Counted from the first letter of the stretch, positions 2,974 to 18,451 are shown. The stretch is DNA of 64,000 bases from an uncultured Pseudomonadota bacterium (GCA_963817785.1 CAWFPL010000004.1:29309-93308); one strand, 5' to 3'. The notes: generated by a model from the sequence alone, not told the origin. A program made the numbers and translations.

Positions 2974-3019
2974 CGGGAATGTGCTGGTCATCGCCTCGGA
3001 CACCTCAGGAGTTGTCAGA

Positions 3020-3401: not shown

Positions 3402-3840
3402 ATGACCGCACAGTCGTACAACGTCGTCGCCGAGATCGACGTCAGCTTCGACGAACACACCGCCGAGCAGTTGCTCGACCCCATCGCCGACTACAGCGGA
3501 GCCGCCGGCCGCTCCGAACTCGGCCACACCGAAGTCGTCTTCACCCTCCCGGCGCAGACCCTCCGGCAGGCCAACACCACCGCCCTGGCCATCCTCGAGA
3601 CCTACCCGTGGCCGCTGCGCTCGCTGCGCGTGCTGCCCACCGACGACTACGACCGGCTCGTCGACGCGATCGACGTCCCGCCGCTGGTTGTCGGTCCAGG
3701 AGGCCGCCGACCAGCTCGGTATCAGCCGCCAGGGCGTCCTCAAGGCGATCACCACCGGTTCGCTGCCCGCGATCCGTGTCGGCAGCACCTGGATCGTGCG
3801 CGAATCCGCTGTGCGCGCCCGCACACAGCGCAGCGCCTGA
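3402..3840 (+). CDS. putative antitoxin-like protein with C-terminal excisionase-type HTH (one frame change near 3685)
   Basis: The N-terminal part lies in ORF 3402... After ~3685 the sensible reading is in another frame: SVQEAADQLGISRQGVLKAITTGSLPAIRVGSTWIVRESAVRARTQRSA*, an HTH ending in TGA 3838-3840. Confidence 0.4.
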
Positions 3841-3957
3841 CCTCCACCTGCTTGGTGAATCGCCCCCACCTCGAGGACAATTCGCGTCCCCGGGTGCACC
3901 GTCGTGCCCCGGCCCGCCGCGAGGTCACCACCTCGACACCCGAGAAGGGGGACACAC

Positions 3958-4772
3958 GTGCCCAGTTCTGCGCTCGTCACACCGGGAGACGACCGGTCTC
4001 CGGTGCTCATCCACGTCCCGCACGCCTCCCGCGTCATCCCGCCCGAGGTGCGCGCGGACCTGCTCCTGACCGATACCGAACTGGCCGCCGAACTCGACGA
4101 ATCGACCGACACCGCCACCGACGAGATCGCAGCGGCAGCACTACGCCACACCGGCCGGCGCCGACGACCGTGGTCAACACGCTATCGCGGCTGGTGATCG
4201 ACCCCGAACGGTTCCCCGACGCGGGGGAGCCGGCCAATGGGTTCGGCCGGGGCGCGGTCTACACCCGCACCTGCACCGGCACGCCGCTACGACCCGAGCC
4301 GTACCCGCACGCCGAGCACCTGCTCGACGGCTATTTCCGTCCCTACGCCGACGCCGTCACCGCAGCGGTCGAGGAGCGTCTGCGCGTGTGCGGCCGCGCG
4401 GTGATCATCGACCTGCACTCGTACCCCGAGGCGCCGTCCGGGTTCGAGGATCCCGCCGCCGCGCGCCCCGCATTGTGTATCGGCACCGATGCGGTCCACA
4501 CCCCCGGCTGGCTGGCCAGGCTCGACCCGTGGCGCATTCGCGTCCCTCGCCGAGATCGCGAGATCGGCGAGAACACGCCGTATTCGGGGTGTTACGTGCC
4601 GCTGCGCCACTACGGCCGCGACGAACGCGTGACCTCGGTGATGATCGAGCTGCGCCGCGATGTCTACCTCACCGACCCGCGCACCCCGCACCCCGAGCGG
4701 GTGGAGCGGATCGGCCGCGCCCTGGCTGTTCTCATCGACCAGGTCACCGCGCAGGTGGCCGCCGATGTGTAA
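3958..4772 (+). CDS. N-formylglutamate amidohydrolase-family protein (frame change near 4150-4190)
   Basis: GTG 3958 follows GAGAAGGGGGA. PVLIHVPHASRVIPPEVRADLLL is in one frame. VVNTLSRLVIDPERF...AVIIDLHSYPEAP...NTPYSGCYVP is in the frame of ORF 3402..4772. Confidence 0.65.
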
Positions 4773-5120
4773 ACCCAAACCGGGCCCGCGCTGCACCCCG
4801 CACATGCGTGCCGCGCCTCGATCAGGTCGCCGCGCGCGTCGCAGGTTGCCCGCACGCGGCTGGCCGAGAATCCGACACATGCGCGGTTGCAACGTCGCCT
4901 CGCCGCCGCCGAGGCCGACCACGCGCAGACCCTCGCGCTGTACGACTCCACCCCGGGCGGGCAGGACGAGCTGCGCGCGGCGATCGAGGCGTCCGGCGAT
5001 CTGAGTGACCGGGACGCGCTGACCGCGCGTTTACGGGACGCTGAGAGGCTCGAGCCGAGCAAACTGCCGCCCTGCGCCGCGTGCGCGCCGAGGACAAGAC
5101 CGACAGGGAAGGAATCGACG
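4766..5120 (+). CDS. hypothetical coiled-coil protein, frame-disrupted
   Basis: ATG overlaps the upstream stop (MCKPKPGPRCTPHMRAA...). The sensible text jumps frames to ...LQRRLAAAEADHAQTLALYDSTPGGQDELRAAIEASGDLSDRDALTARLRDAE. Boundaries are uncertain. Confidence 0.3.
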
Positions 5121-5273
5121 ATGTACCACGAGGAACCGATGACACAGGAGCGCCGAGAAACGTTCTGGCGGCACGTACGGGTGGAGCCCGGACCTACCGG
5201 AGGACAAGCGCAAGAAGATCGAGCAACGCTTCACCGACCCGAAGATCCAGGAGGCCGAAGCGCTCGGCTTCTG
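5121..5273 (+). CDS. small hypothetical protein (frame change near 5170)
   Basis: GGGAAGGAA then ATG (MYHEEPMTQERRETFW). The GC3-rich continuation GGTYGWSPDLPEDKRKKIEQRFTDPKIQEAEALGF* lies in another frame. Confidence 0.3.
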
Positions 5274-5275
5274 AT

Positions 5276-5895
5276 CAACGATCAGCGCGATCACCCCGGC
5301 AGCCGAACACACACCCACCGAGGCCGAGCGCGAACGCTTCACCTCCGCGGGAATGTCCGCGCCGACGCTCTACGAGCTGGCACCGCACGACTCCGGCGTC
5401 TACCGCGCCCAGATGCTCGAGCTGACCGAAAGAATCCCTACGCCGCGTCGGTGTACGTCTACGACGAGGACGAATACCGACAGATGCGGCTGCTGGTGAC
5501 CGATGACGGAAGGGCCGGCATCGCGCTCAAAGGCGACGAGATCGTCTCCGCGTTCGCCCACAAAGACTGCGCGCACCCCAAGTCCGTGCAGTCGATGCTC
5601 GTCCCACGCCACCGCGCTCGGCGGCCATCGTCTGGACTGTTTCGACACGGTGCTTGCCGGATCTGTATGCCGACGCCGGGTTCGTGCCGGTCGCGCGGCT
5701 GAAGTGGAACGACGACTACGCCCCAGACGGGTGGGACTACGACACGTTCCGTGCGTTCAATGACGGTCGCCCGGATGTGGTGTTCATGGCCTACGACCCC
5801 GATCGTGTCGGGGGCGACTACACGCCCGGGCGGGGGATTACGTCGACGACTACGACGACGGCATCGCCCGTGCCCAGCAGTACCGGTCGCACTGA
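5276..5895 (+). CDS. GNAT-fold acetyltransferase-like protein, at least 4 frame changes
   Basis: Stitched reading: ...NPYAASVYVYDEDEYRQMRLLVTDDGRAGIALKGDEIVSAFAHKDCAHPKSVQSML / ATALGGHRLDCFDTVL / PDLYADAGFVPVARLKWNDDYAPDGWDYDTFRAFNDGRPDVVFMAYDP / GDYVDDYDDGIARAQQYRSH*. Start not resolved. Confidence 0.4.
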
Positions 5896-5949
5896 CGACT
5901 GCGCCCCGCGCGCTGTGGCTCGAATCCGTCCCCGCAACCGATGATTCGG

Positions 5950-6480
5950 GTGCGGGGACGGAGCGCCCGGCGCCGTGATCGGCACAGGGGCCTGTCCGGA
6001 AACCATGTCGAATCGCTCGATCTGCTCACCGCCGACGGGTCCATCCGCACTCTGAGCCCCTCGGACGACGACCGCGACCTGTTCTGGGCAACGGTCGGCG
6101 GCATGGGGTTGACCGGCATCGTCGTGCGGGCGCGCGTGCGCATGAAGCACACCGAAACCGCCTACTTCATCGCCGACGCACGACCGCACCGCCAACCTCG
6201 ACGAAACGATGGAACTGCTGGCCGGAGGATCCGACGACGGTTACGACTACTCGATGTCGGTGCCCGATACCATCTCCACCGGCTCAGAAGCTCGGGCCGG
6301 GCGGGATTCACCCGTGGCTCCCTTGCAACTCTTGATCAGCTTCCGCCGAAACTCCGATCGGGATCCGTTGCGGTTCACAGCGCCTCAACTATTTACGGTT
6401 CCAGACATCTTTCCGAGCGGAATGGTCAACCGGGTCACCACGCGGATCGCCTCGGAAGCGGCGTATCGGATGATCCGAAG
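5950..6480 (+). pseudogene. DprE1-like FAD-dependent oxidase, middle segment (5'-truncated, one internal frame change, interrupted by an IS)
   Basis: GNHVESLDLLTADGSIRTLSPSDDDRDLFWATVGGMGLTGIVVRARVRMKHTETAYFIAD, then LDETMELLAGGSDDGYDYS...LRFTAPQLFTVPDIFPSGMVN. This is collinear with M. tuberculosis DprE1 as I recall it. The first ~150 codons are absent. Confidence 0.75.
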
Positions 6481-7663
6481 CACGGCCGGGGCACCGTCCA
6501 GAATCGTAGGCCCGGCGGATGACCAACCGGACCTTGTTGTTCAGGCCCTCGTGGCGTCCGTTGGCCAACCCCCGGGTGACGGCCGCGAAGATGCCATCGA
6601 GATGCTTCCGGATCGTGCGGCCGACCTTGACGAACTGCGGGATGCGGCACCGCTGCGCCCACGAACACCATCGTCCGAGCATGGCGTGCACCTGATCGGC
6701 GTCGAGGTCACCGGCGAACACCGCCCGCAGGGCCTCCTTCAACTCGTAGGCACGCACCAGAGCACCACCGTGGCGTTTGAGTGAATCGAGGGTCGATTCC
6801 TGTTTGGCGGTGAGCTTTTCCGGGTTCTTGAGCAACACCCACCGAGCCCCCTTGTAGGTTTTCGCGACCTGCGTGTCCGACAGGGTGCGCGCCAATTGCC
6901 ACTGTCGACGGCGCACGTCGTCGAGCGCGGCGGTGGCCAGTTTGACGACGTGAAACGGATCGAAGCAGATCGTTGCCTGCGGGGCGTGGGCGCGCACCGA
7001 CTTCCGATACGCCGGCCCCAGATCCATCGACACCGCTTCGATCTTCTCGGCCCCACCGTCGGGCAGCGCGTCGGTGAAGAACTCGTCGAGCGCGGCCGCG
7101 TTCTTGCCTTCGGTACCCCACACGATCGTTCCGGACTCGTGGTCGGATACCAGGGTCAGATACTTGTGGTGCCGACGCCACGATATTTCGTCGACGCCGA
7201 TGTCGACCAGATTCGCGAACCGGTCCGGGTCGAGTTTCTCGGCGGCGACCCGGCTGCACATCGCGCCGACGGTGCGCCAGGTGACGCGGCAGAAACGGGC
7301 CACGGTGGATTTGTCGGTCTTGGTGGCCAGCCATACCGCCAGGTCCTCGAAGTCGCGGGTGAACTTCGATCCGGGGCGGGCGAAGTCCACTGCCTCGGCC
7401 AGCACCCCGTGTTCGGGGCAGTGCAGTCGTCGGCGTCGTAGGGTGAGCACACAGATGCGTCCGCCCAGGTCCAGGTGCCGCCACGACGAATCCACGTCGC
7501 GGGTGTCGTAGCGGTGACGGGTCGAGAATGCGCAGTGTGGGCACTGCATCCGGCGGTGTTTCGGGTGGACCTCGACCACGACGCGACCGTCGGTGATCTC
7601 GACGTCACGGACGGTGGTGCTCGGCAGAGCCAGCAGTTGGTTCAGTAGGGTGGTGGCGCGCAC
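6389..7663 (-). CDS. ISL3-family transposase
   Basis: A 424-aa ORF with an N-terminal zinc finger (CPHCAFSTRHRYD...LHCPEHG) and IGVDEISWRRHHKYLTLV, SMDLGPAYRKSV, FDPFHVVKL, EGLNNKVRLVIRRAY. The last ~35 aa are not family-like and probably read out of the element. Confidence 0.9.
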   Translation of the reverse strand: MRATTLLNQLLALPSTTVRDVEITDGRVVVEVHPKHRRMQCPHCAFSTRHRYDTRDVDSSWRHLDLGGRICVLTLRRRRLHCPEHGVLAEAVDFARPGSKFTRDFEDLAVWLATKTDKSTVARFCRVTWRTVGAMCSRVAAEKLDPDRFANLVDIGVDEISWRRHHKYLTLVSDHESGTIVWGTEGKNAAALDEFFTDALPDGGAEKIEAVSMDLGPAYRKSVRAHAPQATICFDPFHVVKLATAALDDVRRRQWQLARTLSDTQVAKTYKGARWVLLKNPEKLTAKQESTLDSLKRHGGALVRAYELKEALRAVFAGDLDADQVHAMLGRWCSWAQRCRIPQFVKVGRTIRKHLDGIFAAVTRGLANGRHEGLNNKVRLVIRRAYDSGRCPGRASDHPIRRFRGDPRGDPVDHSARKDVWNRK

Positions 7664-7783
7664 GGGTCGGCTCCGGTGGGTGGATGAGTGTAGGAGCTTT
7701 CGACCTTACGGGCGGCCCGTGCGCCCATCCTCACTGCTGCTCGTCGTAGCACATGCTCGGTCATCCACATTCAGAGCAATAGA
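6480..7783 (-). mobile_element. ISL3-family insertion sequence (left end apparently truncated)
   Basis: Contains the transposase ORF. The DprE1-like frame stops near 6480 and resumes at 7784. The sequence at 7755-7783 looks like a terminal repeat, but I found no inverted copy at the left end. Confidence 0.65.
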
Positions 7784-8175
7784 TCCAGTTTTCGGTCCCC
7801 TTCGGTGCCGAGCAGAAACTCGCCGACACCATTCGTGTGATCGCCGAGTCCGGCCACCGGTCATTCCTGAACGTGTTCAAACGAATGGGAGAAGGCAACC
7901 CGGCCCCGCTGTCGTGGCCCGAACCGGGCTACATGCTCAGCCTCGACTTCCCGATCCGTGACGGCCTCGGCAAATTCTGCGACGAACTCGACGAACGCGT
8001 CCTCGATCTCGGTGGCCGACTGTACTTCGCGAAGGACTCACGAAGCACACCTGAGCGCATCGCCCGGATGTACCCGAGGCTCGATGAATGGCGGGCAACC
8101 AGGGACCGCATCGACCCCGACGGTGTGTTCATATCTGATCTTGCGCGCAGGCTCCGATTGGTTGCTCTTGGTTGA
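7784..8175 (+). pseudogene. DprE1-like FAD-dependent oxidase, C-terminal segment
   Basis: IQFSVPFGAEQKLADTIRVIAESGHRSFLNVFKRMGEGNPAPLSWPEPGYMLSLDFPIRDGLGKFCDELDERVLDLGGRLYFAKDSRSTPERIARMYPRLDEWRATRDRIDPDGVFISDLARRL. This is collinear with the DprE1 C-terminus. An in-frame TAG lies immediately upstream, at the IS joint. Confidence 0.85.
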
Positions 8176-8234
8176 TGCCGCGCGCGTGTCGGTTGGTGCG
8201 TGGTGGCGGAATCAAAGCTCTGGAGATGATGGCT

Positions 8235-8765
8235 ATGCGGCGTCGAGTGATCCTGAGTGCAGCCCGGATAACGATCACAGAGTGGCTGCCGGGCGACTTG
8301 GACGACCTCGTCGCTCTGCACTCAGACCCGCTCACCATGCGATTCATCGGTTATGGGCGGCCAGACACGCTCGCTGAGGCACGGTCGCGACTCGATGGAT
8401 ACCTTGGTGAACAGCGGACCAGGGGCTGGACCAAGTGGCGAGTGGAGAACCGCGACGGCGTCCTGATCGGCCGCGCAGGCTTCGGTGAGGTCGATTCCTG
8501 TCGTGAGCTGGCATATGCCCTGAGTCGAGACCTGTGGGGCCGGGGCCTCGCGACCGAGATCGCCAGCGCCTTGGTCAACTGGCACCTCGAACATCCTGCG
8601 CGTGAACTGTCGTCGAGCGGGCTGTGTGCGCATGTCGAGGTGGGGAATCAGGCGAGCGTGCGCGTGCTCGAAAAGGTTCGATTCGAGTACGTGGACTCGC
8701 GTGTGTACGCAGGTGCCGACTGCGACTTCTTTCGGCTTCCGACTGGGACAGTGCTACTCCCGTAG
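8235..8765 (+). CDS. GNAT-family N-acetyltransferase (RimJ/RimL-like)
   Basis: ORF 8172..8765. ITITEWLPGDLDDLVALHSDP...IGRAGF...ELAYALSRDLWGRGLATEIASALVNW...VEVGNQASVRVLEKVRFEY. ATG 8235 fits the GGAGA site best; 8226 is also possible. Confidence 0.8.
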   Translation: MRRRVILSAARITITEWLPGDLDDLVALHSDPLTMRFIGYGRPDTLAEARSRLDGYLGEQRTRGWTKWRVENRDGVLIGRAGFGEVDSCRELAYALSRDLWGRGLATEIASALVNWHLEHPARELSSSGLCAHVEVGNQASVRVLEKVRFEYVDSRVYAGADCDFFRLPTGTVLLP

Positions 8766-8888
8766 GTTGATCCGCCCGAGTCCGGCGTTCGGCCGCGTCC
8801 TCAACGCTCGGGAAACGCTGCGTGTGGACCGACGGATCAGAAACCCGTGACCACGCTTCGTGAGTCGCACTGACGTCAGAACCTATTG

Positions 8889-8913
8889 GTGACCTGCGGT
8901 GATGGCATGTCCC
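8889..8913 (+). repeat. 25-bp intergenic motif, copy M0
   Basis: GTGACCTGCGGTGATGGCATGTCCC. It lies ~57 bp upstream of the -35 of promoter P1. Confidence 0.7.
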
Positions 8914-8969
8914 GGTGTGGGCGTCGATCGGGAGGTGGTCGCAATTTCTGAATTCGTGCGCGGTTCGAG

Positions 8970-8998
8970 TTGGTACGTTACAAAAGTCATTGTATTGT
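8970..8998 (+). promoter_or_regulatory. Promoter P1 with embedded operator-like inverted repeat
   Basis: TTGGTA-N17-TATTGT. The spacer/-10 region contains TACAA-N6-TTGTA (8979-8994). Near-identical to P2 and P3. Confidence 0.55.
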
Positions 8999-9026
8999 TT
9001 GGGTACACCGACGAAAGGGGAAAGAC

Positions 9027-9176
9027 ATGGCAGGCAAGAGCATCGAGGATCTGCGCGCGAACTACTCCGACGCGATCGCCAGCGGAAACCACGAGCAGTT
9101 CGTGTCCGCGAAGGTGGCGCTGGTCGAGGCCACCACCGGCCGCACCCTCACCGCCGACGAGATCGCCTACATCTAG
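9027..9176 (+). CDS. small hypothetical protein (49 aa)
   Basis: Internal ATG of ORF 8970..9176 (MAGKSIEDLRANYSDAIASGNHEQF...), preceded by GAAAGGGGAAAG and followed by a strong terminator. Confidence 0.55.
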   Translation: MAGKSIEDLRANYSDAIASGNHEQFVSAKVALVEATTGRTLTADEIAYI

Positions 9177-9187
9177 ACCAGGCGAGC

Positions 9188-9222
9188 GGGGCCCCACCGG
9201 ACACGGTGGGGCCCTTTCTTTT
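9188..9222 (+). terminator. Rho-independent terminator
   Basis: GGGGCCCCACCG-GACA-CGGTGGGGCCC followed by TTTCTTTT. Confidence 0.65.
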
Positions 9223-9354
9223 CCCTTCCCTGTCCTGTCGCCCAACCGCGTTCGCCTCGGACCACCCGGAGGACTCGGCCTGCCTTGGCACGTGCGCTGG
9301 CCCGGCCGATCCCTCTTCGCCGTGCAGCTTCCCGCATCATCCCGAAATGGCCCC

Positions 9355-9379
9355 TCGACCTGCACAGATGACACGTCCC
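9355..9379 (+). repeat. 25-bp intergenic motif, copy M1
   Basis: TCGACCTGCACAGATGACACGTCCC. Confidence 0.7.
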
Positions 9380-9434
9380 ATGCAGCCGCCCCGTCGGGTC
9401 GGCCCGCCCGCCGCCGACCCTTCAGGAGGAAACC

Positions 9435-9608
9435 ATGGCCGCAGTGACCGGACTGCTCGCCGACCGTCTCGGCGAGATCCTGACCAGCACAGTGCAGTGC
9501 CCGTGCGGCGCGAGCGTCATCGCCCGCAGCCGCGTCGTACTCGATACCCGCAACCCCGCCCTCAATACCTGCGTCGATCTCGATTTCGGGCCACACGCGC
9601 CTTTCTGA
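9435..9608 (+). CDS. small hypothetical protein (57 aa, below the ORF-track cutoff)
   Basis: AGGAGGA 5 nt upstream of ATG 9435. Reads MAAVTGLLADRLGEILTSTVQCPCGASVIARSRVVLDTRNPALNTCVDLDFGPHAPF*, with GC3-rich codons. Confidence 0.45.
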   Translation: MAAVTGLLADRLGEILTSTVQCPCGASVIARSRVVLDTRNPALNTCVDLDFGPHAPF

Positions 9609-9696
9609 TCGAGCACCGCCCCCATCGCGCCGAGTTCACGGATCGGTGACGGCACCGCGTGCTCGGCTTCCCGTCGGGGTGGTGCTGTTGCGAGGC

Positions 9697-9721
9697 CTGA
9701 CCTGGGGCGATGACACGTCCC
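9697..9721 (+). repeat. 25-bp intergenic motif, copy M2
   Basis: CTGACCTGGGGCGATGACACGTCCC. It lies ~68 bp upstream of the -35 of P2. Confidence 0.7.
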
Positions 9722-9788
9722 AGTGGCCCGTCCGGCTGCTGGAGTGGCGCAGCAGGGGGTGCTGGGCGGTGCGATGGTCATCCCCGGG

Positions 9789-9818
9789 TTGCGACATTAC
9801 AAAATGGTATTGTATTGT
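9789..9818 (+). promoter_or_regulatory. Promoter P2 with embedded operator-like inverted repeat
   Basis: TTGCGA-N18-TATTGT with TACAA-N7-TTGTA (9798-9814). ATG 9830 lies only 12 nt after the -10, implying a very short leader. Confidence 0.55.
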
Positions 9819-9829
9819 GAAGGTGAGCG

Positions 9830-10425
9830 ATGACCGGAAAGATCTATGCGACAGGCGTATCCGTCCGTCATTCGCGCCGTGCATCACCTGCGTCCGAAAC
9901 GGCAACGTTCCCGACCTCAGACAATGCAAAGACTGCTTGTTATGTCAGTCGCCGAGTCGGCGGGAAGAGGAGCACGACCATGACGAACACGCTCGCAACG
10001 GTCCGGATCGACCTCGACACCACCACCACCACGCCGCGCACCGCCCCGCCGCTGCGCCCGCCCACCGACTACCGCACCCTGCTGCGCCTGCGCCGCGACC
10101 TCCCCGCCGCCGCGCTCACCAGCGCATTGACGCCGATCTTCGACGACACCGACCTGCACACCCTCGCCGCACGCGGGATGTACCTCGCCCGCCGCGCGCA
10201 CGCCGACACCGCAGCGGCGGTCGAACTGGCCGCCGTCGCCGCAGTCCTGGCCGACGCCCTCGCCGCACCCACCGCAACCCCCGTCACCACCGCGACTCGA
10301 TGCACTGCGCACCGACCCGCGCCACGCACACCGCGAGGCCCGTGAGCTGCTGATGCTCGCCTACCGCGACCTGCTCACCGACCTCGCCGTCGTGGGCGCC
10401 CCGCCGCTGCGCGCGCAGCACTGAC
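9830..10425 (+). CDS. hypothetical protein, paralog of 11498-11964 (frame change near 10295; alternative start 9980)
   Basis: ORF 9830..10345 contains MTNTLATVRIDLD... at 9980, after GGGAAGAGGAG. The C-terminus in another frame reads LDALRTDPRHAHREARELLMLAYRDLLTDLAVVGAPPLRAQH*. Confidence 0.45.
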
Positions 10426-10458
10426 CACCACCACAACCCCGAGAGATAGGACACCGCG

Positions 10459-10788
10459 ATGACCACCACCGAGAACACCACCGACGAGCAGTACATGTCC
10501 GGCGGCGAGCGCGCGGCCGCGCGCGGCGCGCACTACATCGAAGAGTCGGTGAGCGTGTACCTCATGCGCGACCTCGCCGGGACCGACACGTGGGTCATCG
10601 ACCCCACCAACTTCGGCGTCCGCGCTCGAGACGAACTACGACATGCCCGTCAACACCGAATGCCGGTGCGGCACACCCGACGAGTGCGACGAGATCCGCC
10701 ACCGGATGCACTTCGTGTCCACGCCCGACGGCGAGGAGCTGATGCACATGCTCGCCGACGCGCTCGGCTACACGGTCACCAAGCCCTG
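10459..10788 (+). CDS. hypothetical protein (frame change near 10615)
   Basis: MTTTENTTDEQYMSGGERAAARGAHYIEESVSVYLMRDLAGTDTWVIDPTNFGV, then in another frame ETNYDMPVNTECRCGTPDECDEIRHRMHFVSTPDGEELMHMLADALGYTVTKP*. Confidence 0.45.
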
Positions 10789-10795
10789 ACCAGCC

Positions 10796-10829
10796 GACGG
10801 TCGGGCCGCGTCGACGCGGCCCGACCGTC
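10796..10829 (+). terminator. Perfect 15-bp-stem hairpin (terminator-like, no U tract)
   Basis: GACGGTCGGGCCGCG-TCGA-CGCGGCCCGACCGTC, directly after the stop at 10788. Confidence 0.55.
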
Positions 10830-10865
10830 GCCTGTTGCTGTACCCGACAAAAAAAGGACCAGAGC

Positions 10866-11501
10866 ATGACTTCTTCCCACCCGTTCGCCGCTGTCCGCAC
10901 GCTCGCCGATCTGGCCGCTGTACGCGACGCACACACCTCGAAACACCCTGATCCCTCCACGACCCTGGACCCGGCCGCCGCGCGCGCTGTGCGGGCCTGT
11001 GAGGCGCTTGTTGCTGTGGTGCCGTACGGCGAGCGCACCCATGCCGACACCGACGACCTCGGGTCCGTGTTGGCCGACCTCGCGGGCGACCTGCGGCACC
11101 TGGCCGACCAGCTCGGCCTCGACTGGCACGACATCGACCGCCGCGCCCAGAGCTACTACGGCGACGAAACCGGTCGTGACCATGACACCGAACCCGCCGT
11201 GACACCCGAGGTGGAGATTGCGGCTGTCAGGGATCCTGACGGACCGACAAGCTTCGAGTTATTTGTCGATGGCACGCCCGTGGTCGCCACCGAGTACGTC
11301 ATCGACGCCGGTGCGGGCTGGGGGTGGACGGAATGGAAGGAAACCCGCGATCACAACCTGGCTGCGGCGTCGCCCGCCGTACGGGCGGTGTTGCTCGCGC
11401 ATTACGTCGACCCGCCCGGGGGTAAGTACGTCGAGGGTCGCGACGACGCCCCGTGGATCGACCCCGAACCGGCCCTCGACGCGGCTGGAACCGAGCGGTG
11501 A
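10866..11501 (+). CDS. hypothetical protein (211 aa, intact)
   Basis: Uninterrupted ORF with GC3-rich codons. Its stop overlaps the next start (GTGA at 11498-11501). Confidence 0.65.
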   Translation: MTSSHPFAAVRTLADLAAVRDAHTSKHPDPSTTLDPAAARAVRACEALVAVVPYGERTHADTDDLGSVLADLAGDLRHLADQLGLDWHDIDRRAQSYYGDETGRDHDTEPAVTPEVEIAAVRDPDGPTSFELFVDGTPVVATEYVIDAGAGWGWTEWKETRDHNLAAASPAVRAVLLAHYVDPPGGKYVEGRDDAPWIDPEPALDAAGTER

Positions 11502-11964
11502 CCGCCACTGCAACGGCCCGGCGCACCGGTTCGTCGGTGCGCCGGGCATTCGCCCCGGCCGCGCAGCGTTACCGTGCGCTGTTGCGGCGGGGCGACACTC
11601 TCGCCGAGGTGCCCGACTACCTGCGCCTGTTCGGCTGGGTGGACATCGCCACGGTCGCTGCGCGCGGGGTACGGCTGGCCGTTCAGGACGCCCGAGGAAC
11701 CACCGCGCAGACCGTCACGCTGGAGCTGCGCGGGGAGTAGACGGCGAGATCGTCGGGTACCGGGTCGGCGTCGAACTGTTCGCGGCCGCGACGATCCTCG
11801 GCGAGTATCTGCGCCTGCCCGCCACCGACGGCCTCGTCGCCGACCTGGCGGCTGCCCTCGCCCGTGATTCCCGGTACGAGCTGCGCACCCAGGTCGAGCT
11901 GCTGATGCTCGCCTACCGGCTGCTGCTCACCGACCCTGGATCAGACCTCGAAAATGTCCTCTGA
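11498..11964 (+). CDS. hypothetical protein, paralog of 9830-10425 (frame change near 11740)
   Basis: VTATATARRTG...YRALLRRGDTLAEVPDYLRLFGWVDIATVAARGVRLAVQDARGTTAQTVTLELRGE, then VDGEIVGYRVGVELFAAATILGEYLRLPATDGLVADLAAALARDSRYELRTQVELLMLAYRLLLTDPGSDLENVL*. Confidence 0.45.
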
Positions 11965-11985
11965 CCAGTGCAGATGACACGTCCC
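11961..11985 (+). repeat. 25-bp intergenic motif, copy M3
   Basis: CTGACCAGTGCAGATGACACGTCCC, followed by the 18-bp palindrome GCGCCCTCGCGAGGGCGC. Confidence 0.7.
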
Positions 11986-12116
11986 GCGCCCTCGCGAGGG
12001 CGCGGCTGTGACCATCGAACGCGGCAGGGCCGGGTGAGTTGCTCTGTGTCGAAACCCGTCCCCTCGGTGCAGATCGGCTTGTTCACGCAGTCCCCAAAGA
12101 TAGGCGAAAATGCACT

Positions 12117-12141
12117 CTGACCTGCGTAGATGGCACGTCCC
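12117..12141 (+). repeat. 25-bp intergenic motif, copy M4
   Basis: CTGACCTGCGTAGATGGCACGTCCC. Confidence 0.7.
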
Positions 12142-12194
12142 GGGTGGAGGTCGGCGCGGGCCTGGCGGCGGCTGCCCGCGTGCCGTGTTGTGCT

Positions 12195-12219
12195 GCGACC
12201 TGCGGAAACGGCACGTCCC
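12195..12219 (+). repeat. 25-bp intergenic motif, copy M5
   Basis: GCGACCTGCGGAAACGGCACGTCCC. It lies ~61 bp upstream of the -35 of P3. Confidence 0.65.
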
Positions 12220-12279
12220 ACGGTGGCCGTATGCAAGGCCTGAGCCGCGCTCGCTGGCGATTCGGCAACATCACGGGAG

Positions 12280-12308
12280 TTGCACAATACAAATAGGCAT
12301 TGTAAAGT
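12280..12308 (+). promoter_or_regulatory. Promoter P3 with embedded operator-like inverted repeat
   Basis: TTGCAC-N17-TAAAGT with TACAA-N7-TTGTA (12288-12304). Confidence 0.55.
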
Positions 12309-12328
12309 AGGCAGCGCCGGAAGGGGTA

Positions 12329-12351
12329 CTGACCGGCAAGGATGACGTCCC
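12329..12351 (+). repeat. 25-bp intergenic motif, copy M6 (2 nt shorter)
   Basis: CTGACCGGCAAGGATGACGTCCC, in the leader between P3 and ATG 12382. Confidence 0.6.
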
Positions 12352-12381
12352 ACTGACAGCAGTGGAGAAGAGGGGTTCACG

Positions 12382-12786
12382 ATGGCGAACACGGTGCTGG
12401 CAGTCCGGCTCGATGTAGACGGAACCGCGACAGTGATCGACCTGGAGAAGACGGAGACGGGTGTCGGCACGGCTCTGCGTGCGGCGTTGGAGTGCGAGCT
12501 GTTCGATGTGGTGCGGTTGGGGTCGGGTCTGGATATGTGGCTCGACGAGGAGGGGCTGTGCGTCGGTGAGCCGGTGGTCAACGAGGTAGCGACGCGTATC
12601 GCGCGGTTCTACGGCTTCACGTGGCAGCCGTATGTGGGGCCGGTGGTGTTCGCGTCTGTCGATGACGAGGGCGAGACCCAGTCCCTGGAGAGTGAGCAGA
12701 TCGCGGCGTTGTTGGCGACGGCGCATGTTGGGGGCCGTGCGGTGCTCGATGCGTCCCTCGGTGAGGGCGCGGAGGTGCGGGTGTGA
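12382..12786 (+). CDS. DUF3846-like domain protein
   Basis: Intact 134-aa ORF after GAGAAGAGGGG. The pattern ...IDLEK....L..AL.CELFDVVRLGSGLDMWLDEEGL..GEPVN.VATRIA......PYVGPVVFA matches what I recall of DUF3846, which is common on conjugative elements and phages. Confidence 0.65.
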   Translation: MANTVLAVRLDVDGTATVIDLEKTETGVGTALRAALECELFDVVRLGSGLDMWLDEEGLCVGEPVVNEVATRIARFYGFTWQPYVGPVVFASVDDEGETQSLESEQIAALLATAHVGGRAVLDASLGEGAEVRV

Positions 12787-12815
12787 CGAGCGCGTCGATG
12801 TTCTTTGGGGGTATA

Positions 12816-13411
12816 TCAGTGTGCTGTGGCGGGGCGGCGCACGGCCTGAATCCATAGCGGCGCTGCAAGGATCCCGAGGGCGCAACCGGCTATTGGGAAG
12901 ATCAGGTAGGGCGAGCCAAGGTCGAAATGCGTTGGTGCGTTTTCGATTGCGTAGGGATCGGTGGATGGAGCCATGGACAGCTCCAGCTGAAGGTGCGGTG
13001 GGAATTTTGCGCTGTAGATCGCGGAAGTGAATCCGATCAGGATTCCGGTGGCGGCGAGTCCTGCCGCTCCCAGTCGGATTAAGCGCGACCGCGACAGTGA
13101 CGCCGGTGGGCGAGTGTGGCGACCAGTACGCCAGCCAGGACGCCGAGCAGGGTGCATATGAGTGGCAGCGTGATCGCGGTCGGTAACCAGGATGGTCCGG
13201 AGATGTACTTTTCGTGGTCGACCTCGATCATGAAGCCCTGCTCCTGACCGGGAGGTATGAGCTCGGGGGCGATGGGAGCGTAGTCGGGTGAGCCGTAGGG
13301 CGCGATGTATCGCCATCCAATGGTTGCGAGCACTCCCAGCGCGAGACCGAAACAGCCGTATACGGCGATTACTCGGGTCATCGAAGGTCTCATGGTTGCG
13401 TCGACGGTCAT
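12816..13411 (-). CDS. membrane protein (about 4 TM), frame change near 13090
   Basis: ORF 13079..13441 (MTVDATMRPSMTRVIAVYGCFGLALGVLATIGW...LPLICTLLGVLAGVLVATLA) continues in the frame of ORF 12816..13316 (LGAAGLAATGILIGF...YLIFPIAGCALGILAAPLW). Confidence 0.5.
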
Positions 13412-13516
13412 GTCTCCATCTTCGGTCGAGCTCTGACGCACAACAACATGGAGTGTGTGACTTTGTTGTCGCTCGGCCCCTGAACGGCTGGACCGGCGAC
13501 GCGGATCATTCGCTGC

Positions 13517-13810
13517 TCAGTTATCGATGTCCAGGTCCGTGGTTACTGCAACCGAAGCAACCCACTTCCCTTCGGCCTCGACAATTGAATGCGAGATCGA
13601 GATCACTACCGCCCCCTCACTCACGCACACTTCATTTGCGAAGGTGGCTGCTTGGTTGGACAACTCGCGGTGTAGCTCAGTAAGGGTGCTGTACGGACCA
13701 AGTTCGAGGGTGTAGACCTCATACGCGTGGTTCGTGCTCATTGCCTGAATGATACGGCTTGTGCATACACGGACATGCCGTGAAGTGTCAGTGTCGATTG
13801 ATTTCGCCAT
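13517..13810 (-). CDS. hypothetical protein (97 aa; possible internal start at 13741)
   Basis: Intact ORF, lower GC than its neighbours, with GAGGCG upstream of ATG 13810. Confidence 0.5.
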   Translation of the reverse strand: MAKSIDTDTSRHVRVCTSRIIQAMSTNHAYEVYTLELGPYSTLTELHRELSNQAATFANEVCVSEGAVVISISHSIVEAEGKWVASVAVTTDLDIDN

Positions 13811-13848
13811 TACGCCTCTGCCGCCGCGCCGAACTATCTACTTACCCG

Positions 13849-13890
13849 GCCGGGTGGTAGATGTACTGGATTCTTCATCTACCACCCGGC
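13849..13890. other. Perfect 15-bp-stem hairpin next to the IS21 end
   Basis: GCCGGGTGGTAGATG-N12-CATCTACCACCCGGC. There is no U tract on either strand. Confidence 0.4.
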
Positions 13891-14025
13891 TGAGATCACT
13901 CATTGAGTGAGTGAGTATTTGGAGGCTTGAAGGCCACCGAATATTGCCTCCCGGAGCCACCGATATTGCCGACGGGGGCCAGTAACCGCCACTCTCAGGG
14001 CCACCAGCCACCCGTCGACATCGTG

Positions 14026-14772
14026 TTACTGGTTCGCGGCGGCGTGTTCACGCATGTTGTGCGTGCCGGTGTCGATCCAGATGGTGTTGTGGACAATGCG
14101 GTCCATGATCGCATCGGCATGGACTCCGGATCCGAGCCTCTGGTGCCAGTCCTTCTTCGCGTACTGCGTGCAGAACACCGTCGACCCCGTGTCGTAGCGA
14201 CGCTCGAGCAACTCCAGCAGCATGCTGCGCATCCCGTCATCAGGATGATCCAGCAACCATTCGTCGATCACCAGCAGCGAGAACGCGGCGTACTTGTTGA
14301 GGAACTTCGTCTGACCGTGAGGCTTCTCCTTGGCCAGGGCCCATGCTTCCTCGAGATCGGGCATCCGAATGTAGTGCGCCCGGATCCGGTGCTGACAGGC
14401 CTGTTTGGCCAACGCGCACCCCAAATACGATTTCCCGGACCCAGTGAATCCCTGGAACACCACATTCTGCTGACGCTCGATGAACGAACAGGTCGCCAGC
14501 TGAGCAATCACCGCCCGGTCCAAACCCCGCTCCTCGATCAAGTCCACCCGACGAAGATCAGCGCCGGGATACCGCAGTCCAGCCCGGCGGATCAGTCCCT
14601 CGACTTTCGAATGGTTGAACGCCTGGTGTGCATCGTCGACCACGAGTTGCAGGCGATCCGCGAATCCCATCCCGAGCACATGAGCATCGTCTTGGGCCTC
14701 GATCGCGTCGAGAAGCGGCTGAGCACCCATCTCGCGGAGCTTGCGTTTGGTTTCGATATCGATTCCGCTCAC
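14026..14772 (-). CDS. istB: IS21 helper ATPase IstB
   Basis: 248 aa with Walker A GFTGSGKSYLG, LLVIDEWLL and a DnaA/IstB-like layout. It overlaps the istA stop by 4 bp. Confidence 0.95.
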   Translation of the reverse strand: MSGIDIETKRKLREMGAQPLLDAIEAQDDAHVLGMGFADRLQLVVDDAHQAFNHSKVEGLIRRAGLRYPGADLRRVDLIEERGLDRAVIAQLATCSFIERQQNVVFQGFTGSGKSYLGCALAKQACQHRIRAHYIRMPDLEEAWALAKEKPHGQTKFLNKYAAFSLLVIDEWLLDHPDDGMRSMLLELLERRYDTGSTVFCTQYAKKDWHQRLGSGVHADAIMDRIVHNTIWIDTGTHNMREHAAANQ

Positions 14773-16331
14773 TGAGCACCCCCGCCGTAGTAGTCGGCGC
14801 CACGAACGTAACCACCGAGCTCGTCGGGCTCCTCACGTGGTGGTCGTAACCCGGCAGTCTTGTCCTGGCCGGTGACCAGAATCGGTTGCAGATGCGCATA
14901 GCGTGGTGAACGCACCCGCCCGGTCAAAGCCAGAGCACATGCAGCCTCGACCCGCTCAGCGGAAAAGCGCCGCGACAACCGCAACACCGCCAGCGCAGCG
15001 TCGAGTCCCTGCTCGTCGACGGGCACGGACTCGAAGATCCGATTGACCACGATCTCGGCTGCGGGGCCGATCCGATGCGCCCACGCCCGGGCCCGGGCGG
15101 CGTCCCACTGCCGATACTTCGCGCCGGCCGGTAGATCAGCGTCGCGGGTGCGGTACTGACCCGCCGCACCCTCAGGCAGGAGCAGGTGACTGGACAGTCT
15201 CTCGGTGCCACGGTAGATCTCCAGCATCCGGGCGGTGACCCGCAGATCGACCTTGGTCCCGATGTGCGCCAAGGGCACCGAGTAGTAGTTGCGTTCGAAG
15301 ACCACGTGCGCGTTGCGGCCGACCCGGCGACCGTAGAACCACCGGCTGATCTCGTATGTCACCGCCGGCAACGCGGTCAGCAGCGGCTGCTCCTCGGCGG
15401 TGAACACGCTGTGGCGGGATCCGGGGCGTTTCTGGAACGGCTCTCGGTTGTAGGCATGAATCCGCCCCGCGATCGCCGATTCGAGTTCGGGCAGTGTCGA
15501 GAACAGATGCTCGCGCAACCCCGCAATGACCCACGTAGCAACGTGGGAGACGGTGTTCTCCACGCTCGCTTTGTCTTTCGGACGCCGAATGCGACCCGGC
15601 AGTACCGCCGCCGAGTAGTGCGCGGCCAGGTCCCGGTAGGCGTCATTGAGGACGATTTCACCCTCACGCGGATGCTTGATCACTCCGGTCTTGAGGTTGT
15701 CCGGCACTATCCTCGGCACCGAGCCGCCGAAGAACTCGAACATCGCCACATGCGCACGAAGCCACGTGTCCTGCCGCATGTCCAGGGCGGGCCAGACGAA
15801 TGCATACCTGCTGAACGGCAGGCACGCCACGAACAAGTACACCGTCCGGACTTGTCCGGATGCCGGGTCGCTGAGCTCCATCGTCGGGCCGGACCAGTCG
15901 ACCTCCACGGTCTGCGCGGCCTTGTGTCCGACCCGCGAGGCTGCGCCGGTGACCAGGACATGCCGTTGGTAGGTCTTGCAGAACCGGTCGTAGCCCATCG
16001 CCGGATCCCCTGAAACCGTGCACGCATCGGTGTACTCGCCGTGCAGCAGCTTCAACGTCACGCCGACCCGGGCCATTTCCCGATGGACTTGTTCCCAGTC
16101 AGGTTGGGCGAACACGCTCTCGTGCTCGCCGCGGCCCGGGAAGAGGCGGGCGTACACGTCACTGTCGTCGAGGTCGGTGACATCGTCCCAGGTCGTTCCC
16201 GTCGCATCGGCGGCGTCGAGGACCTCGGCGATACTTTTGCGGGACATGCCGTGGGATGCTGCGATCGCTCTGCCGGACAGGCCCTCCGCGCGAAGCTGCA
16301 GTACGAGCTTTGCTTTGATCTTCCGTACCAT
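14769..16331 (-). CDS. istA: IS21 transposase IstA
   Basis: 520 aa with an N-terminal HTH (LSGRAIAASHGMSRKSI) and an integrase core (VEVDWSGPT...ACLPFSRYAF...VPDNLKTGV). Confidence 0.95.
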   Translation of the reverse strand: MVRKIKAKLVLQLRAEGLSGRAIAASHGMSRKSIAEVLDAADATGTTWDDVTDLDDSDVYARLFPGRGEHESVFAQPDWEQVHREMARVGVTLKLLHGEYTDACTVSGDPAMGYDRFCKTYQRHVLVTGAASRVGHKAAQTVEVDWSGPTMELSDPASGQVRTVYLFVACLPFSRYAFVWPALDMRQDTWLRAHVAMFEFFGGSVPRIVPDNLKTGVIKHPREGEIVLNDAYRDLAAHYSAAVLPGRIRRPKDKASVENTVSHVATWVIAGLREHLFSTLPELESAIAGRIHAYNREPFQKRPGSRHSVFTAEEQPLLTALPAVTYEISRWFYGRRVGRNAHVVFERNYYSVPLAHIGTKVDLRVTARMLEIYRGTERLSSHLLLPEGAAGQYRTRDADLPAGAKYRQWDAARARAWAHRIGPAAEIVVNRIFESVPVDEQGLDAALAVLRLSRRFSAERVEAACALALTGRVRSPRYAHLQPILVTGQDKTAGLRPPREEPDELGGYVRGADYYGGGAQ

Positions 16332-16751
16332 TACGGATCACTCCTTCCGCCTTGTGCCCGATACACATGGCGGGAGGAGCCTAGAAAGACTGGCCCCCAC
16401 GCACGTCGCTATTGGCTCCCACGCGCACTACCGCCGGATCCGGGTCACGGCACCTGAGCGGAATACCGGTGGACCCCAGCAAACCGAATATTCACTGGAG
16501 CGCATCTGTTGAGGGTGTGACAACACCAGCGTCTGGCGGTTGGGTATTGACCGCACCCCTCGCTCAGCAATTTCCACGCATTCCAGGACTACCGTGCGTC
16601 TGGCGGGACCGCATCTGAGGCGGTGCTGGTGGTGGTGACGTGAGGACCGCGGATGACGCCATCACTGTCGTCGCTTCACGCTCACCGGTGGGTCCGCGCA
16701 CACACGGTTCGGCACTCAGGCCGAAAGGTACAGAGATGGTGGGCATGTGCT

Positions 16752-18451
16752 GCTTAGCCTCAATCTTTCGCGCGGGTGACGCGCTGGCCTGAGCAGTTCG
16801 GATTGGACGTGGAAAACCGTGGATCCGGTGTGCTTCCACGATCGACTACCCGACACGGTCGGGTGACGCCGGGGTCCACGGCCCCAAGCTGAGCGTCCCT
16901 TTCGTCTCGATGAAGAAGATTCGTGCAGGTCACACAGGTGCAGGTAGTGCTGCAAGCCGGTTCAGACCGGCCACGAGAACATCGACACCAGGAGCCGTCG
17001 CGGCCAGCCGTAACCGAACCCGGCGGGCATGCCGGGCGATCTTCCCGGCGATCGACAGCACCCGCAACCGCAACCGTTTCGGCTCCCACCTGCGTGCAGT
17101 CGTGTCGGTCAACGCGAGCATCTGCATCCACGCGAGCAGCTCGCACGCCAGTTGCACGAGCGCCAACCAGATCCGATTCTGATCGAACCCGTGCAACGGA
17201 AAATTCTGTAGTCCGGTCGCTTTCGCTGTCCGGATCCGGTCCTCGCACCGAGCCCGACGCCGGTGCCGCAACTCCAGATCGGGCAGTTGCCCGCGGCGGG
17301 TGTTGGTCACGAACGCCGTCAGACGCAGTCCGTCACGATCGGTGAACCGCAACTGCGCACCCGGATGCGGACGCTCCTTCCTCACGATCACGCGCATGCC
17401 GTTCGGCCACGTCGACAGGTCGAGCAACCCGGTGATCTCGGTGACCCAAGCGCCGTCACGGACCTGCCCGTCCGAGTCGTAGGCCGGCGTCCATGCCTGA
17501 TCAGGAACGAGATCGATCGCGGCGGCGTGGGCGTCGGTCAACCCGAATCCGACCGAATACGAGAGCCTGCGCTTGGTCAGATACTCGATCAAGGAGTGGG
17601 TGCCGCCGGCGCCGTCGATCCGGACCAGCACCTTCTTCCCGACCCGATATCCCGGATCGAACGGCAACTGCGCGAGGGCGTCCTGCACGACGGTGATGTG
17701 GTCGGCGGCGGTGTTCGAACCGGCGTTACCCGGGCGCAGGAGCATCGCGACGGGTTCACCGGTGCCGTGCTCACCGTGGTCGACGAACGCGCATAACGGA
17801 TGAAACCCGTAGCCGCGTTTGAAGTTCGGGGCGGCGTGTTCTTTGTTCGAGTGCGCGGTGACGAGGGTGGCGTCGATGTCGACAACCAGCGGTGTCCGCT
17901 CGTCGATGGTGTGATCCGGTGCCGAGGAGCCGGCGGCGGTCCAGGCGTGGGCGCGGGCGGCGGTGCGGGCCCGTCCGATGGCGGCCAGTGCGATGTCGGC
18001 GTCACCCGCGAGGGTGGTGATCAGGCGGGAGACGGTCGGGTCGGAGGCCACCGTGCCGAAAAGTTCGGGCTGGGCGCGTAGTTGGTTGATGTCGGCGAGG
18101 CAGTCCCCGCCGAGCGCGAGGGAGACTGCGAGGTCGAGGAGGATCTTGCCGGGATCGTGGCGTGCCAACGGTTTCCGGAACCGGGCGAGTTCGGTCGTCA
18201 ATGCCGTGGTGAGGCCGGTTTTCTCGGCGGTGCGCAACAGCAGGACGGCGCCGGCATGTGACACGATGCCGGTTCCGTTGGCCGATGCGGACACGTGTGG
18301 GTAGGGGGACGTAGACTTGCTCACCGGAATGGTGCTCCTCGAACTGGTTGAAACTCGACCCTCAGCAAGTCGAATTATCCCAGCTCAGGGCACCATTCTT
18401 TGTGTTCGACACGGCCGCTCGCTCAATCAGCACGAAAGCGCGAGGTTAGGC
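16752..18451 (-). mobile_element. IS1380-family insertion sequence (ends approximate)
   Basis: Imperfect terminal inverted repeats. The reverse complement of the left end, CGAAAGATTGAGGCTAAGC, aligns with the right end CGAAAGCGCGAGGTTAGGC. Length ~1.7 kb. Confidence 0.65.
16930..18324 (-). CDS. IS1380-family transposase
   Basis: Intact 464-aa ORF. GIVSHAGAVLL, VVDIDATLVTAHSNKE, YGFHPL, RIDGAGGTH, RVIVRKERPHPGAQL, AFVTN and FPLHGFDQNRIW are typical of IS1380 DDE transposases. Confidence 0.9.
   Translation of the reverse strand: MSKSTSPYPHVSASANGTGIVSHAGAVLLLRTAEKTGLTTALTTELARFRKPLARHDPGKILLDLAVSLALGGDCLADINQLRAQPELFGTVASDPTVSRLITTLAGDADIALAAIGRARTAARAHAWTAAGSSAPDHTIDERTPLVVDIDATLVTAHSNKEHAAPNFKRGYGFHPLCAFVDHGEHGTGEPVAMLLRPGNAGSNTAADHITVVQDALAQLPFDPGYRVGKKVLVRIDGAGGTHSLIEYLTKRRLSYSVGFGLTDAHAAAIDLVPDQAWTPAYDSDGQVRDGAWVTEITGLLDLSTWPNGMRVIVRKERPHPGAQLRFTDRDGLRLTAFVTNTRRGQLPDLELRHRRRARCEDRIRTAKATGLQNFPLHGFDQNRIWLALVQLACELLAWMQMLALTDTTARRWEPKRLRLRVLSIAGKIARHARRVRLRLAATAPGVDVLVAGLNRLAALPAPV

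Follow-up and report, generated by a model that had tools for sequence, protein, structure and literature searches.

The closest described counterparts of the system reported here are the kor regulons of plasmids, together with the immunity operators of phages. In the IncP-1 plasmids (RK2/RP4), the KorA operators are palindromic, overlap the -10 element and occur at many promoters, and the repressor gene lies inside the regulon. In the kil-kor system of the Streptomyces plasmid pIJ101, the divergent korA and tra promoters are both under the same repressor, the GntR-family protein KorA. We know of no account of how backbone genes are controlled in the linear plasmids of Rhodococcus and Prescottella, which carry catabolic pathways and, in pVAPN, virulence genes. 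Here, a DNA stretch of 64,000 nucleotides (nt) attributed to an uncultured Pseudomonadota bacterium (GCA_963817785.1, CAWFPL010000004.1:29309-93308) was found to contain four promoters, P0 to P3, that carry a common palindrome, and related promoters were found on the Rhodococcus/Prescottella plasmids. The whole 64-kilobase (kb) stretch is called the window, and coordinates are counted in it unless a plasmid or record is named. Comparison of these sequences indicates that the sites probably form a regulon of operator-bearing promoters under one plasmid repressor, most likely a small protein here called REG.

The promoter and operator copies of the window, all on the + strand, are the following.

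2170-2199, + strand: P0, a fourth promoter/operator, TTGCAAcattgcaatgacgttttgTATGTA, TTGCAA-18-TATGTA, preceding a conserved gene of 70 amino acids (aa) at 2235-2447
8970-8998, + strand: P1, TTGGTA-17-TATTGT, palindrome TACAA-N6-TTGTA
9789-9818, + strand: P2, TTGCGA-18-TATTGT, palindrome TACAA-N7-TTGTA
9921-9945, + strand: O2, a stand-alone palindrome in the leader of gene C, ACAATGCAAAGactgCTTGTTATGT, without -35/-10 context and kept in homologues
12280-12308, + strand: P3, TTGCAC-17-TAAAGT, palindrome TACAA-N7-TTGTA

An earlier reading made from the sequence alone had reported P1 to P3 as three near-identical promoters with one shared inverted repeat. The three strings are present as it quoted them, and its description of their -35 and -10 hexamers and spacers agrees with the anatomy given above. 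They are similar rather than near-identical, with about 20 of the 29 core positions in common and a mean column identity of 65% over 100 nt, and the set is larger than three, as P0 and O2 also lie in the window. The core TACAA-N5..8-TTGTA occurs three times in the 64 kb, at P1 to P3 only, against 0.02 expected, and three or more matches were reached in none of 100 dinucleotide-preserving shuffles, which bears out the view that a chance origin is very unlikely. A simple scanner using the E. coli consensus reports none of these sites because they match fewer than nine of its 12 positions; they do fit the actinobacterial TTGnnn/TAnnnT pattern. Neither the window nor any of three related loci gave an Rfam match at gathering score.

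The start codon lies 29 nt from the -10 at P1, 74 nt at P3 and 162 nt at P2, whose leader includes O2. Shine-Dalgarno sequences lie ahead of the start codons, among them those behind P1 (ATG 9027) and P3 (ATG 12382), two of the three unit starts that had been proposed. The third, at 9830, was replaced by ATG 9980 of gene C, which aligns with the GTG start of its homologues; the P2 leader is therefore about 160 nt long, not nearly absent as the sequence-only reading had predicted. A Zn-ribbon-like open reading frame beginning at GTG 9824 or ATG 9830 was rejected, as this stretch aligns with the non-coding leader of the homologues. In that upstream alignment O2, about 100 nt 3' of P2, consists of the palindrome only, with no -35 and no usable -10.

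Low-stringency DNA searches matched 10061-12786 to a block located 0.4-8 kb from the ends of Rhodococcus/Prescottella plasmid records, including the linear plasmids pNSL1, pRaL13d and pVAPN1571. The pVAPN plasmid is an invertron-like conjugative linear replicon related to pNSL1 (PMC5434932). In these relatives every gene of the block is oriented toward the telomere, and the order toward the end is a 3'-5' exonuclease, the 70-aa gene, a 156-aa gene, a HicA-like/HicB-like pair, an FGase-family gene, small genes, DUF3846, one small gene and the end itself. The DUF3846 gene, which lies behind P3 in the window, is thus among the last genes before the telomere, and it was also found near the ends of pROB01 and pRHL3. 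A P element (for example TTGACActatgcaaacgtactttgTATAGT and TTGCAAcattacaagtaatacctgTAAGGT) precedes the orthologues of gene A, gene C, the 70-aa gene and DUF3846 in the AH-ZY2 plasmid unnamed3, pRaL13d, pNSL1 and pVAPN. Orthologous sites of P0 were located in pNSL1 (record L004 419-448), pRaL13d (7884-7913) and pVAPN (6567-6596). Alignments of the upstream regions showed only three conserved islands, namely the P element, the Shine-Dalgarno sequence and a second element, motif B, which is described below; the alignment upstream of gene C has one extra island, which is O2.

Whole-plasmid scans were made of pRaL13d (82 kb), pVAPN (120 kb) and pNSL1 (117 kb). In pRaL13d seven strict P sites were found against 0.2 expected, plus weaker sites. 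They precede DUF3846, gene A, gene C, the 70-aa gene and an operon for a membrane protein, DUF3560 and the exonuclease, as well as the gene for an 89-aa regulator, an ADP-ribosyltransferase gene, DUF6884 and two other genes. Seven P sites lie ahead of orthologous genes in pVAPN, and the pattern of pNSL1 is alike, giving 7-10 sites per plasmid that overlap core promoter elements. The motif is therefore present in related elements, and the comparison supports a regulon that would cover the whole plasmid. The sequence-only reading had proposed one shared repressor of the kor or immunity type for the small-gene region; the shared repressor has strong comparative support from the orthologous sites, the set of 7-10 sites, the symmetric co-variation of the two arms and O2, but the region was drawn too narrowly.

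The palindrome was defined from an alignment of 26 sites from seven replicons, numbered by the columns of a 30-nt element. It is about 25 base pairs (bp) long and centred on column 18, extending from A6, where the -35 ends, to T30, the final base of the -10, with the consensus ACAWTRCAAA-N5-TTTGTAWnGT. The promoter elements themselves are well kept: TTG opens the -35 in 26/26 sites (mostly TTGACA or TTGCAA in the relatives), TA opens the -10 in 26/26, the final T of the -10 is present in all but window P0 (25/26), and the spacer is always 17 or 18 nt. Beyond anything that a promoter consensus requires, C is found at column 7 in 23/23 sites and G at column 29 in 25/26, and these two columns are symmetry partners. 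The inner pairs also tend to be complementary, columns 14 and 22 in 19/26 sites and columns 15 and 21 in 17/26, where column composition would give 13.8 and 8.8. The inner triplet depends on the lineage: pRaL13d, pNSL1, pBD2 and the window have AAA or AAT, each of the six aligned pVAPN sites has A(A/G)G in its two arms, and R. fascians has ACG/ACG. Such concerted changes of both arms at every site of a plasmid point to a dimer-type operator that would co-evolve with its protein, and the alignment strongly supports an operator constraint, rather than a promoter constraint, on the palindrome. As the operator spans the spacer and the -10, binding should lead to repression.

The best candidate for the protein was found in the relatives. 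In the left 18 kb of pRaL13d a single gene is oriented opposite to the array, and it is annotated as a transcriptional regulator of 89 aa (REG89, 11006-11275); it diverges from an adjoining P promoter and is itself preceded by a P-like promoter. The same divergent layout is seen in pVAPN, pBD2, pROB01 and pNSL1, and a P-like promoter of REG itself was found in pRaL13d, pVAPN and pBD2; in pVAPN it carries the G and C at columns 15 and 21 that are typical of this plasmid. Since the REG promoter carries the same operator, REG would be autoregulated. The REG family is small, its members range from 80 to 106 aa, and homologues are present on 63 Rhodococcus/Prescottella plasmids, including every P-bearing plasmid examined. 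The window encodes no REG homologue, in agreement with the earlier statement that it holds no obvious repressor gene; in the relatives the REG gene lies about 3 kb past the point where homology to the window ends.

The linkage between REG and the palindrome extends to distant members of the family. Four REG lineages with 45-70% identity and unrelated neighbours have TACA-N9-TGTA palindromes upstream, fused to a TAAGGT/TAGAGT hexamer. The inner operator bases vary with the REG lineage and recur when the predicted recognition helix recurs: pRHL1 and pUSK13_2 have the operator TTACAGC...GTTGTA and share the predicted helix STFRGYVSRGQ, and pA21d2, with TACAGCG-N3-CGCTGTA, shares both the helix STWRSYVARGQ and the CGCTGTA arm with pROB01. 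Given that the sites are operators, REG is the best candidate for their repressor, and we consider the assignment somewhat more probable than its converse.

A GC-rich variant of the ACA-N9-TGT geometry was also observed on a plasmid of Rhodococcus sp. H-CA8f (record L177 1130-1460), where (A/G)CAGCGTGACGCTG(C/T)A is present four times upstream of a distant REG homologue, each time joined to CAAGGT, TAGAGT or CATGGT.

The proposed mechanism is as follows. P0 to P3 would be promoters of the housekeeping sigma factor (SigA, sigma-70 type), each with a palindromic operator of about 25 bp that fills the spacer and overlaps the -10, so that the bound protein would shut out RNA polymerase. On the invertron-type linear plasmids of Rhodococcus and Prescottella, about 7-10 such promoters and at least one promoter-less operator would make up the regulon, and one plasmid-encoded repressor would jointly silence all its units: the small genes, DUF3846, the 3'-5' exonuclease/DUF3560 operon, the ADP-ribosyltransferase and DUF6884. 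By analogy with known systems, these units may fire transiently once the plasmid enters a repressor-free cell. The repressor would most likely be REG89, a predicted winged-helix protein of the MerR superfamily that is transcribed against the array. The promoter activity of the sites, the repression, the identity of the bound protein and the timing are predictions, made from the conservation of the sites, the geometry of the palindrome, its lineage-specific symmetric changes and the constant linkage to REG.

By analogy, the proposed arrangement would resemble IncP-1 kor in having one plasmid repressor, a shared palindromic operator over the -10 and, with REG as the candidate, a repressor gene within the regulon. 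A second class of sites at variable upstream distances is a further likeness, KorB operators in one case and motif B in the other, although KorB sites are palindromic and motif B is asymmetric. Unlike IncP-1 kor, to which it has no sequence or family relation, it belongs to linear replicons of Actinobacteria and its candidate repressor is a MerR-like winged helix. The pIJ101 system is likewise found on an actinomycete conjugative plasmid with an FtsK/SpoIIIE-type transfer protein, and its repressor gene is divergent from the repressed operon; however, GntR-family KorA is unrelated to the small winged-helix REG, and about ten promoters are concerned here. The operators of lambdoid phages and phage 434 are also ACAA-N6/7-TTGT-like dyads over core promoter elements, and their lineage-specific variants parallel variants of the repressor in a heteroimmunity-like manner, but no Cro/CI-type repressor is linked to the P sites and the element is a plasmid. 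In its predicted mode of action the P system matches the kor regulons and the phage immunity operators, and it belongs to none of those families, because its candidate repressor is unrelated to their repressors.

The predicted fold of REG speaks for its candidacy. The AlphaFold model (predicted local distance difference test score of 75) consists of helix-helix-beta hairpin-helix, with a winged helix-turn-helix (HTH) at residues 9-62 followed by a disordered basic tail, and the structures that it matches best are DNA-binding domains of the MerR family, excisionases, RacA and BldC. Several observations weigh against the interpretation. These structural matches are weak (E 0.04-0.5). Sequence searches with REG gave no Pfam or NCBIfam match (E<=1 and E<=0.1) and nothing credible in the PDB (E<=10), and the model has no counterpart of the helix through which true MerR proteins dimerise. 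Direct repeats are the targets of small relatives such as BldC and Xis, and REG could therefore bind the asymmetric motif B instead. In the window, the -10 of P0 (TATGTA) is defective in that it lacks the final T, and about half of the block genes are frameshifted, so that this copy may be in decay, with promoters that have lost their relevance. The pROB01 arms are asymmetric in the inner triplet, the only such case. Literature searches on the motifs, on DUF3846 and on pNSL1/pVAPN promoters returned no description of the P promoters, the REG family or motif B.

The rival that deserves most attention keeps the operator-bearing promoters and assigns them to another plasmid protein, either a 143-aa tandem-Xre HTH protein (pRaL13d 31321-31752) or an unannotated small protein, with REG89 binding elsewhere, for example at motif B. 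The fold class of REG includes monomeric binders of direct repeats, and a motif B copy adjoins the 3' end of the REG gene. The 143-aa protein is kept between pVAPN and pRaL13d (67% identity) and matches RstR/DicA/HipB-type repressors through two HTH stretches, and the ACAA-N6-TTGT form of P1 is that of phage 434 operators. However, no P-type palindrome lies near its gene, which has a different repeat upstream, CTGTTGACGCAG, and the REG gene keeps its adjoining palindrome across 45-100% identity and changing neighbours, with matching variants. On balance we regard another repressor as unlikely. For the HTH protein of 3402-3840, which the sequence-only reading had put forward, the case is hardly credible: it has a C-terminal HTH_17/excisionase-type domain (E about 1e-9 to 4e-10) and belongs to the conserved block, but its gene comes directly after a HicA-like one, both are served by a separate promoter with the repeat TTGTCA/TGACAA, and a frameshift takes the HTH domain of the window copy out of frame. 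This protein was rejected as the repressor of P1 to P3 and is best read as a HicB-like antitoxin.

Two other explanations concern what the palindrome is for. REG might be a MerR-style activator that remodels the promoter at a spacer palindrome, the sites then being activator sites. The dyad does have its centre between the -35 and the -10, at column 18 of the 30-nt element, as at MerR-family promoters, the candidate has a MerR-type winged HTH, and a -10 of the form TAAGGT resembles that of the mer promoter. MerR-type activation by DNA distortion nevertheless needs an over-long spacer of 19-20 bp, whereas the spacers here are 17-18 bp between good hexamers (for example TTGACA-18-TATAGT), where repression by occlusion is to be expected; REG also has no long dimerisation helix, coiled-coil or effector-binding domain, and O2 has no promoter to activate. 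Activation is thus very unlikely. Less probable still is that the sites are copies of one strong promoter cassette, spread by duplication or recombination, with an incidental inverted repeat that nothing binds. The units are modular and shuffled between plasmids, and the right arm of the palindrome is mostly the -10 itself, but a cassette would not account for the plasmid-wide symmetric changes of inner bases in both arms, for the conserved C7 and G29, for the palindrome kept at the promoter-less O2, or for its persistence beside REG in unrelated contexts. A regulon of repressed promoters with REG as the probable repressor is therefore preferred over these alternatives.

If so, a single small repressor with lineage-specific operators would account for three features: genes near the telomere would be silenced together, their expression would surge when the plasmid enters a new host, and the plasmids would fall into compatibility or 'immunity' groups. 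Together with the repressor, the promoters (TTGACA-18-TATAGT plus a defined operator) would also provide compact orthogonal switches for Rhodococcus engineering.

The CTGTTGACGCAG repeats near the tandem-Xre gene were seen inside short palindromes in pRaL13d (31880-31975) and pVAPN (35340-35410), between this gene and the operon leading to the rep gene. They may be the operator of the tandem-Xre regulator or origin iterons.

A second motif, which the sequence-only reading had missed, lies beside every P promoter of the window. Motif B is asymmetric, (GAAAA-N6-8-)CTGAMCTGC-N4-5-GATGRCACGTCCC, also written ...CTGACCTGC-N4-GATGRCACGTCCC. Eight copies are present in the window, all on the same strand, and its 13-nt core occurs exactly six times, always on the + strand, against 0.01 expected. 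At least one copy is located upstream of each P promoter, 56-79 nt before the -35 hexamer. The copies are these.

2064-2090, + strand: motif B, CTGTGAGCAGTGCCGATGGCACGTCCC, like the telomere-proximal type, at the left edge of the homology to the plasmid block
8887-8913, + strand: motif B, 56 nt upstream of P1
9353-9379, + strand: motif B, the sole conserved element between the gene A terminator and gene B
9695-9721, + strand: motif B, 67 nt upstream of P2
11959-11985, + strand: motif B, overlapping the stop codon of gene G
12115-12141 and 12193-12219, + strand: motif B, two tandem copies upstream of P3
12329-12351, + strand: motif B, degenerate, CTGACCGGCAAGGATGACGTCCC, within the DUF3846 leader

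The position and orientation of motif B are kept in the relatives, and pVAPN also has a copy between a P element and its gene, at 49790. The 22 copies found in pRaL13d compare with 0.05 expected, and all 22 lie between genes on a plasmid whose coding fraction is 0.81; 25 copies were counted in pVAPN and 22 in pNSL1. Many of them adjoin a stop codon, through either end of the motif. In the left arm, from the telomere to the rep gene, the motif points to the telomere in 13/13 copies of pRaL13d, 17/17 of pVAPN and 12/12 of pNSL1 (counted from records L012/L013, L169-L171 and L172-L174, respectively), and the right arm is mixed. The left-arm copies stay on one strand even where the genes run the opposite way, and their orientation therefore follows the replicon and not transcription. 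In pVAPN (547 and 119373) and pNSL1 (543 and 116698), each of the two terminal inverted repeats has a copy that points outward and lies about 545 nt from the end, with the sequence ...GTGAGCTGGGGTGATGGCATGTCCC, and a similar motif lies 520-550 nt from one sequenced end of the otherwise distant pROB01 and pRHL3. End-proximal copies were recorded at L003 6012-6024, L004 8353-8365, L006 9093-9105, L007 8355-8367 and L010 10314-10326.

Extracytoplasmic function (ECF) sigma factors recognise promoters with a spacing of 16-17 nt. Motif B was rejected as such a promoter, as the distance is 12-13 nt from TGAMC to CGTC and 24 nt from GAAAAC to CGTC, and pRaL13d lacks a homologue of the pVAPN gene for an ECF sigma factor. 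When 49 copies were folded, the structures were heterogeneous and had no stem in common, and no common hairpin was found 3' of the motif. Pattern scans for P and B in viral contigs, and for B in metagenome contigs, gave only single chance-like matches, in unrelated contigs of other base composition; a scan of a genome collection with the DUF3846 protein returned two loci only.

The closest analogy for motif B is the operator/'stoperator' system of Cluster A mycobacteriophages, which has a 13-bp consensus, GGTGGMTGTCAAG, and a gp71-type two-domain repressor (PMC9283540). Both motifs are asymmetric, are present in more than 20 copies, occupy short intergenic spaces, are mostly co-oriented with genes and belong to elements with Mycobacteriales hosts. 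Motif B differs in its sequence and in its length, 27-37 nt as opposed to 13 nt. The orientation of stoperators strictly follows transcription, whereas left-arm motif B follows the replicon, and about a fifth of the motif B copies are antisense to both neighbouring genes (5/23 non-coding copies in pVAPN). No gp71-like repressor was identified for motif B, with no search aimed at one. A broader proposal, which we put forward as doubtful, is that the P operators and motif B are two layers of one plasmid-wide architecture of silencing and insulation. A minimal MerR-like repressor would shut about ten 'entry' promoters with a specificity diversified by lineage, as in phage immunity groups, and motif B would be a new polar element, either a roadblock/insulator or a signal of replicon polarity that serves replication, segregation or DNA transfer of the FtsK-like kind. 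In itself, motif B poses a separate problem, now precisely defined and testable.

The genes of the block in the window, with the promoter of the HicA-like/HicB-like pair, are arranged as follows.

3012-3059, + strand: promoter/operator of the HicA-like/HicB-like pair, outside the P regulon, TTGTCAgaatgacaa...TAGTTT...gttgtca, repeat TTGTCA/TGACAA
3086-3295, + strand: HicA-like gene, annotated as a HicA toxin in pVAPN, with a weak HicA match
3402-3840, + strand: HicB-like HTH gene following the HicA-like gene, frameshift near 3688, HTH domain out of frame
9027-9176, + strand: gene A, 49 aa, a conserved small protein behind P1, with an intrinsic terminator at 9188-9225
9435-9608, + strand: gene B, 57 aa, 3' of the gene A terminator
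9980-11964, + strand: operon behind P2, genes C, E, F and G
9980-10424, + strand: gene C, first gene behind P2, frameshift near 10300
10459-10789, + strand: gene E, frameshift near 10620, with a hairpin at 10791-10834
10866-11501, + strand: gene F
11499-11964, + strand: gene G, a paralogue of gene C, frameshift near 11735
12382-12786, + strand: DUF3846 gene, the unit behind P3

Homology to the plasmids begins at 2064, with none to the left, and stops after 12786. The region is a truncated, frameshift-rich and rearranged copy, disrupted by insertion sequences (IS), of a block that is conserved in the left arm of invertron linear plasmids from Rhodococcus and Prescottella (pNSL1, pVAPN, pRaL13d and pBD2). 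The HicA-like/HicB-like pair is kept in the relatives. The 70-aa protein behind P0, the most conserved of the block, showed no DNA-binding signature and no family match, and no phage DNA match was found for window 1-14000. At least seven genes of the block (the HicB-like, FGase, 180-aa and 50-aa genes and genes C, E and G, within 3402-11964) need a frameshift to align with their homologues. The window copy would thus be either decaying or part of an assembly rich in indel errors.

Genes for an ISL3 transposase and a GNAT protein break up the block, and beyond it comes an IS21. The ISL3-family transposase lies at 6389-7663 on the - strand, and insertion sequences were also found at 13900-16400 and 16750-18450; those in and around the block include IS21 (istA/istB) and an IS1380 that is 99.8% identical to a copy on an R. 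pyridinivorans plasmid. Genes C and G have the C-terminal sequence ...ELLMLAYR.LLTD... in common and a DNA repeat that is 90% identical over 40 nt (10131-10424 and 11741-11964). The gene A module (8887-9608, corresponding to record L001 6274-6965) is 3' of gene G in the relatives and 5' of gene C in the window, where its ancestral site is reduced to 130 nt between two motif B copies (11986-12114). The boundaries of the module are motif B copies, and recombination may therefore occur at this motif.

The base composition of the window changes abruptly, which suggests a mosaic or unrelated pieces of DNA joined together. The window has no runs of N, and its G+C fraction is 0.64-0.73 up to about 41.5 kb, 0.34-0.42 at 42-47.5 kb and 0.55-0.61 thereafter. 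Between about 28 and 40 kb it contains ppsA/nifJ-type genes that match Alphaproteobacteria with 74-78% identity.

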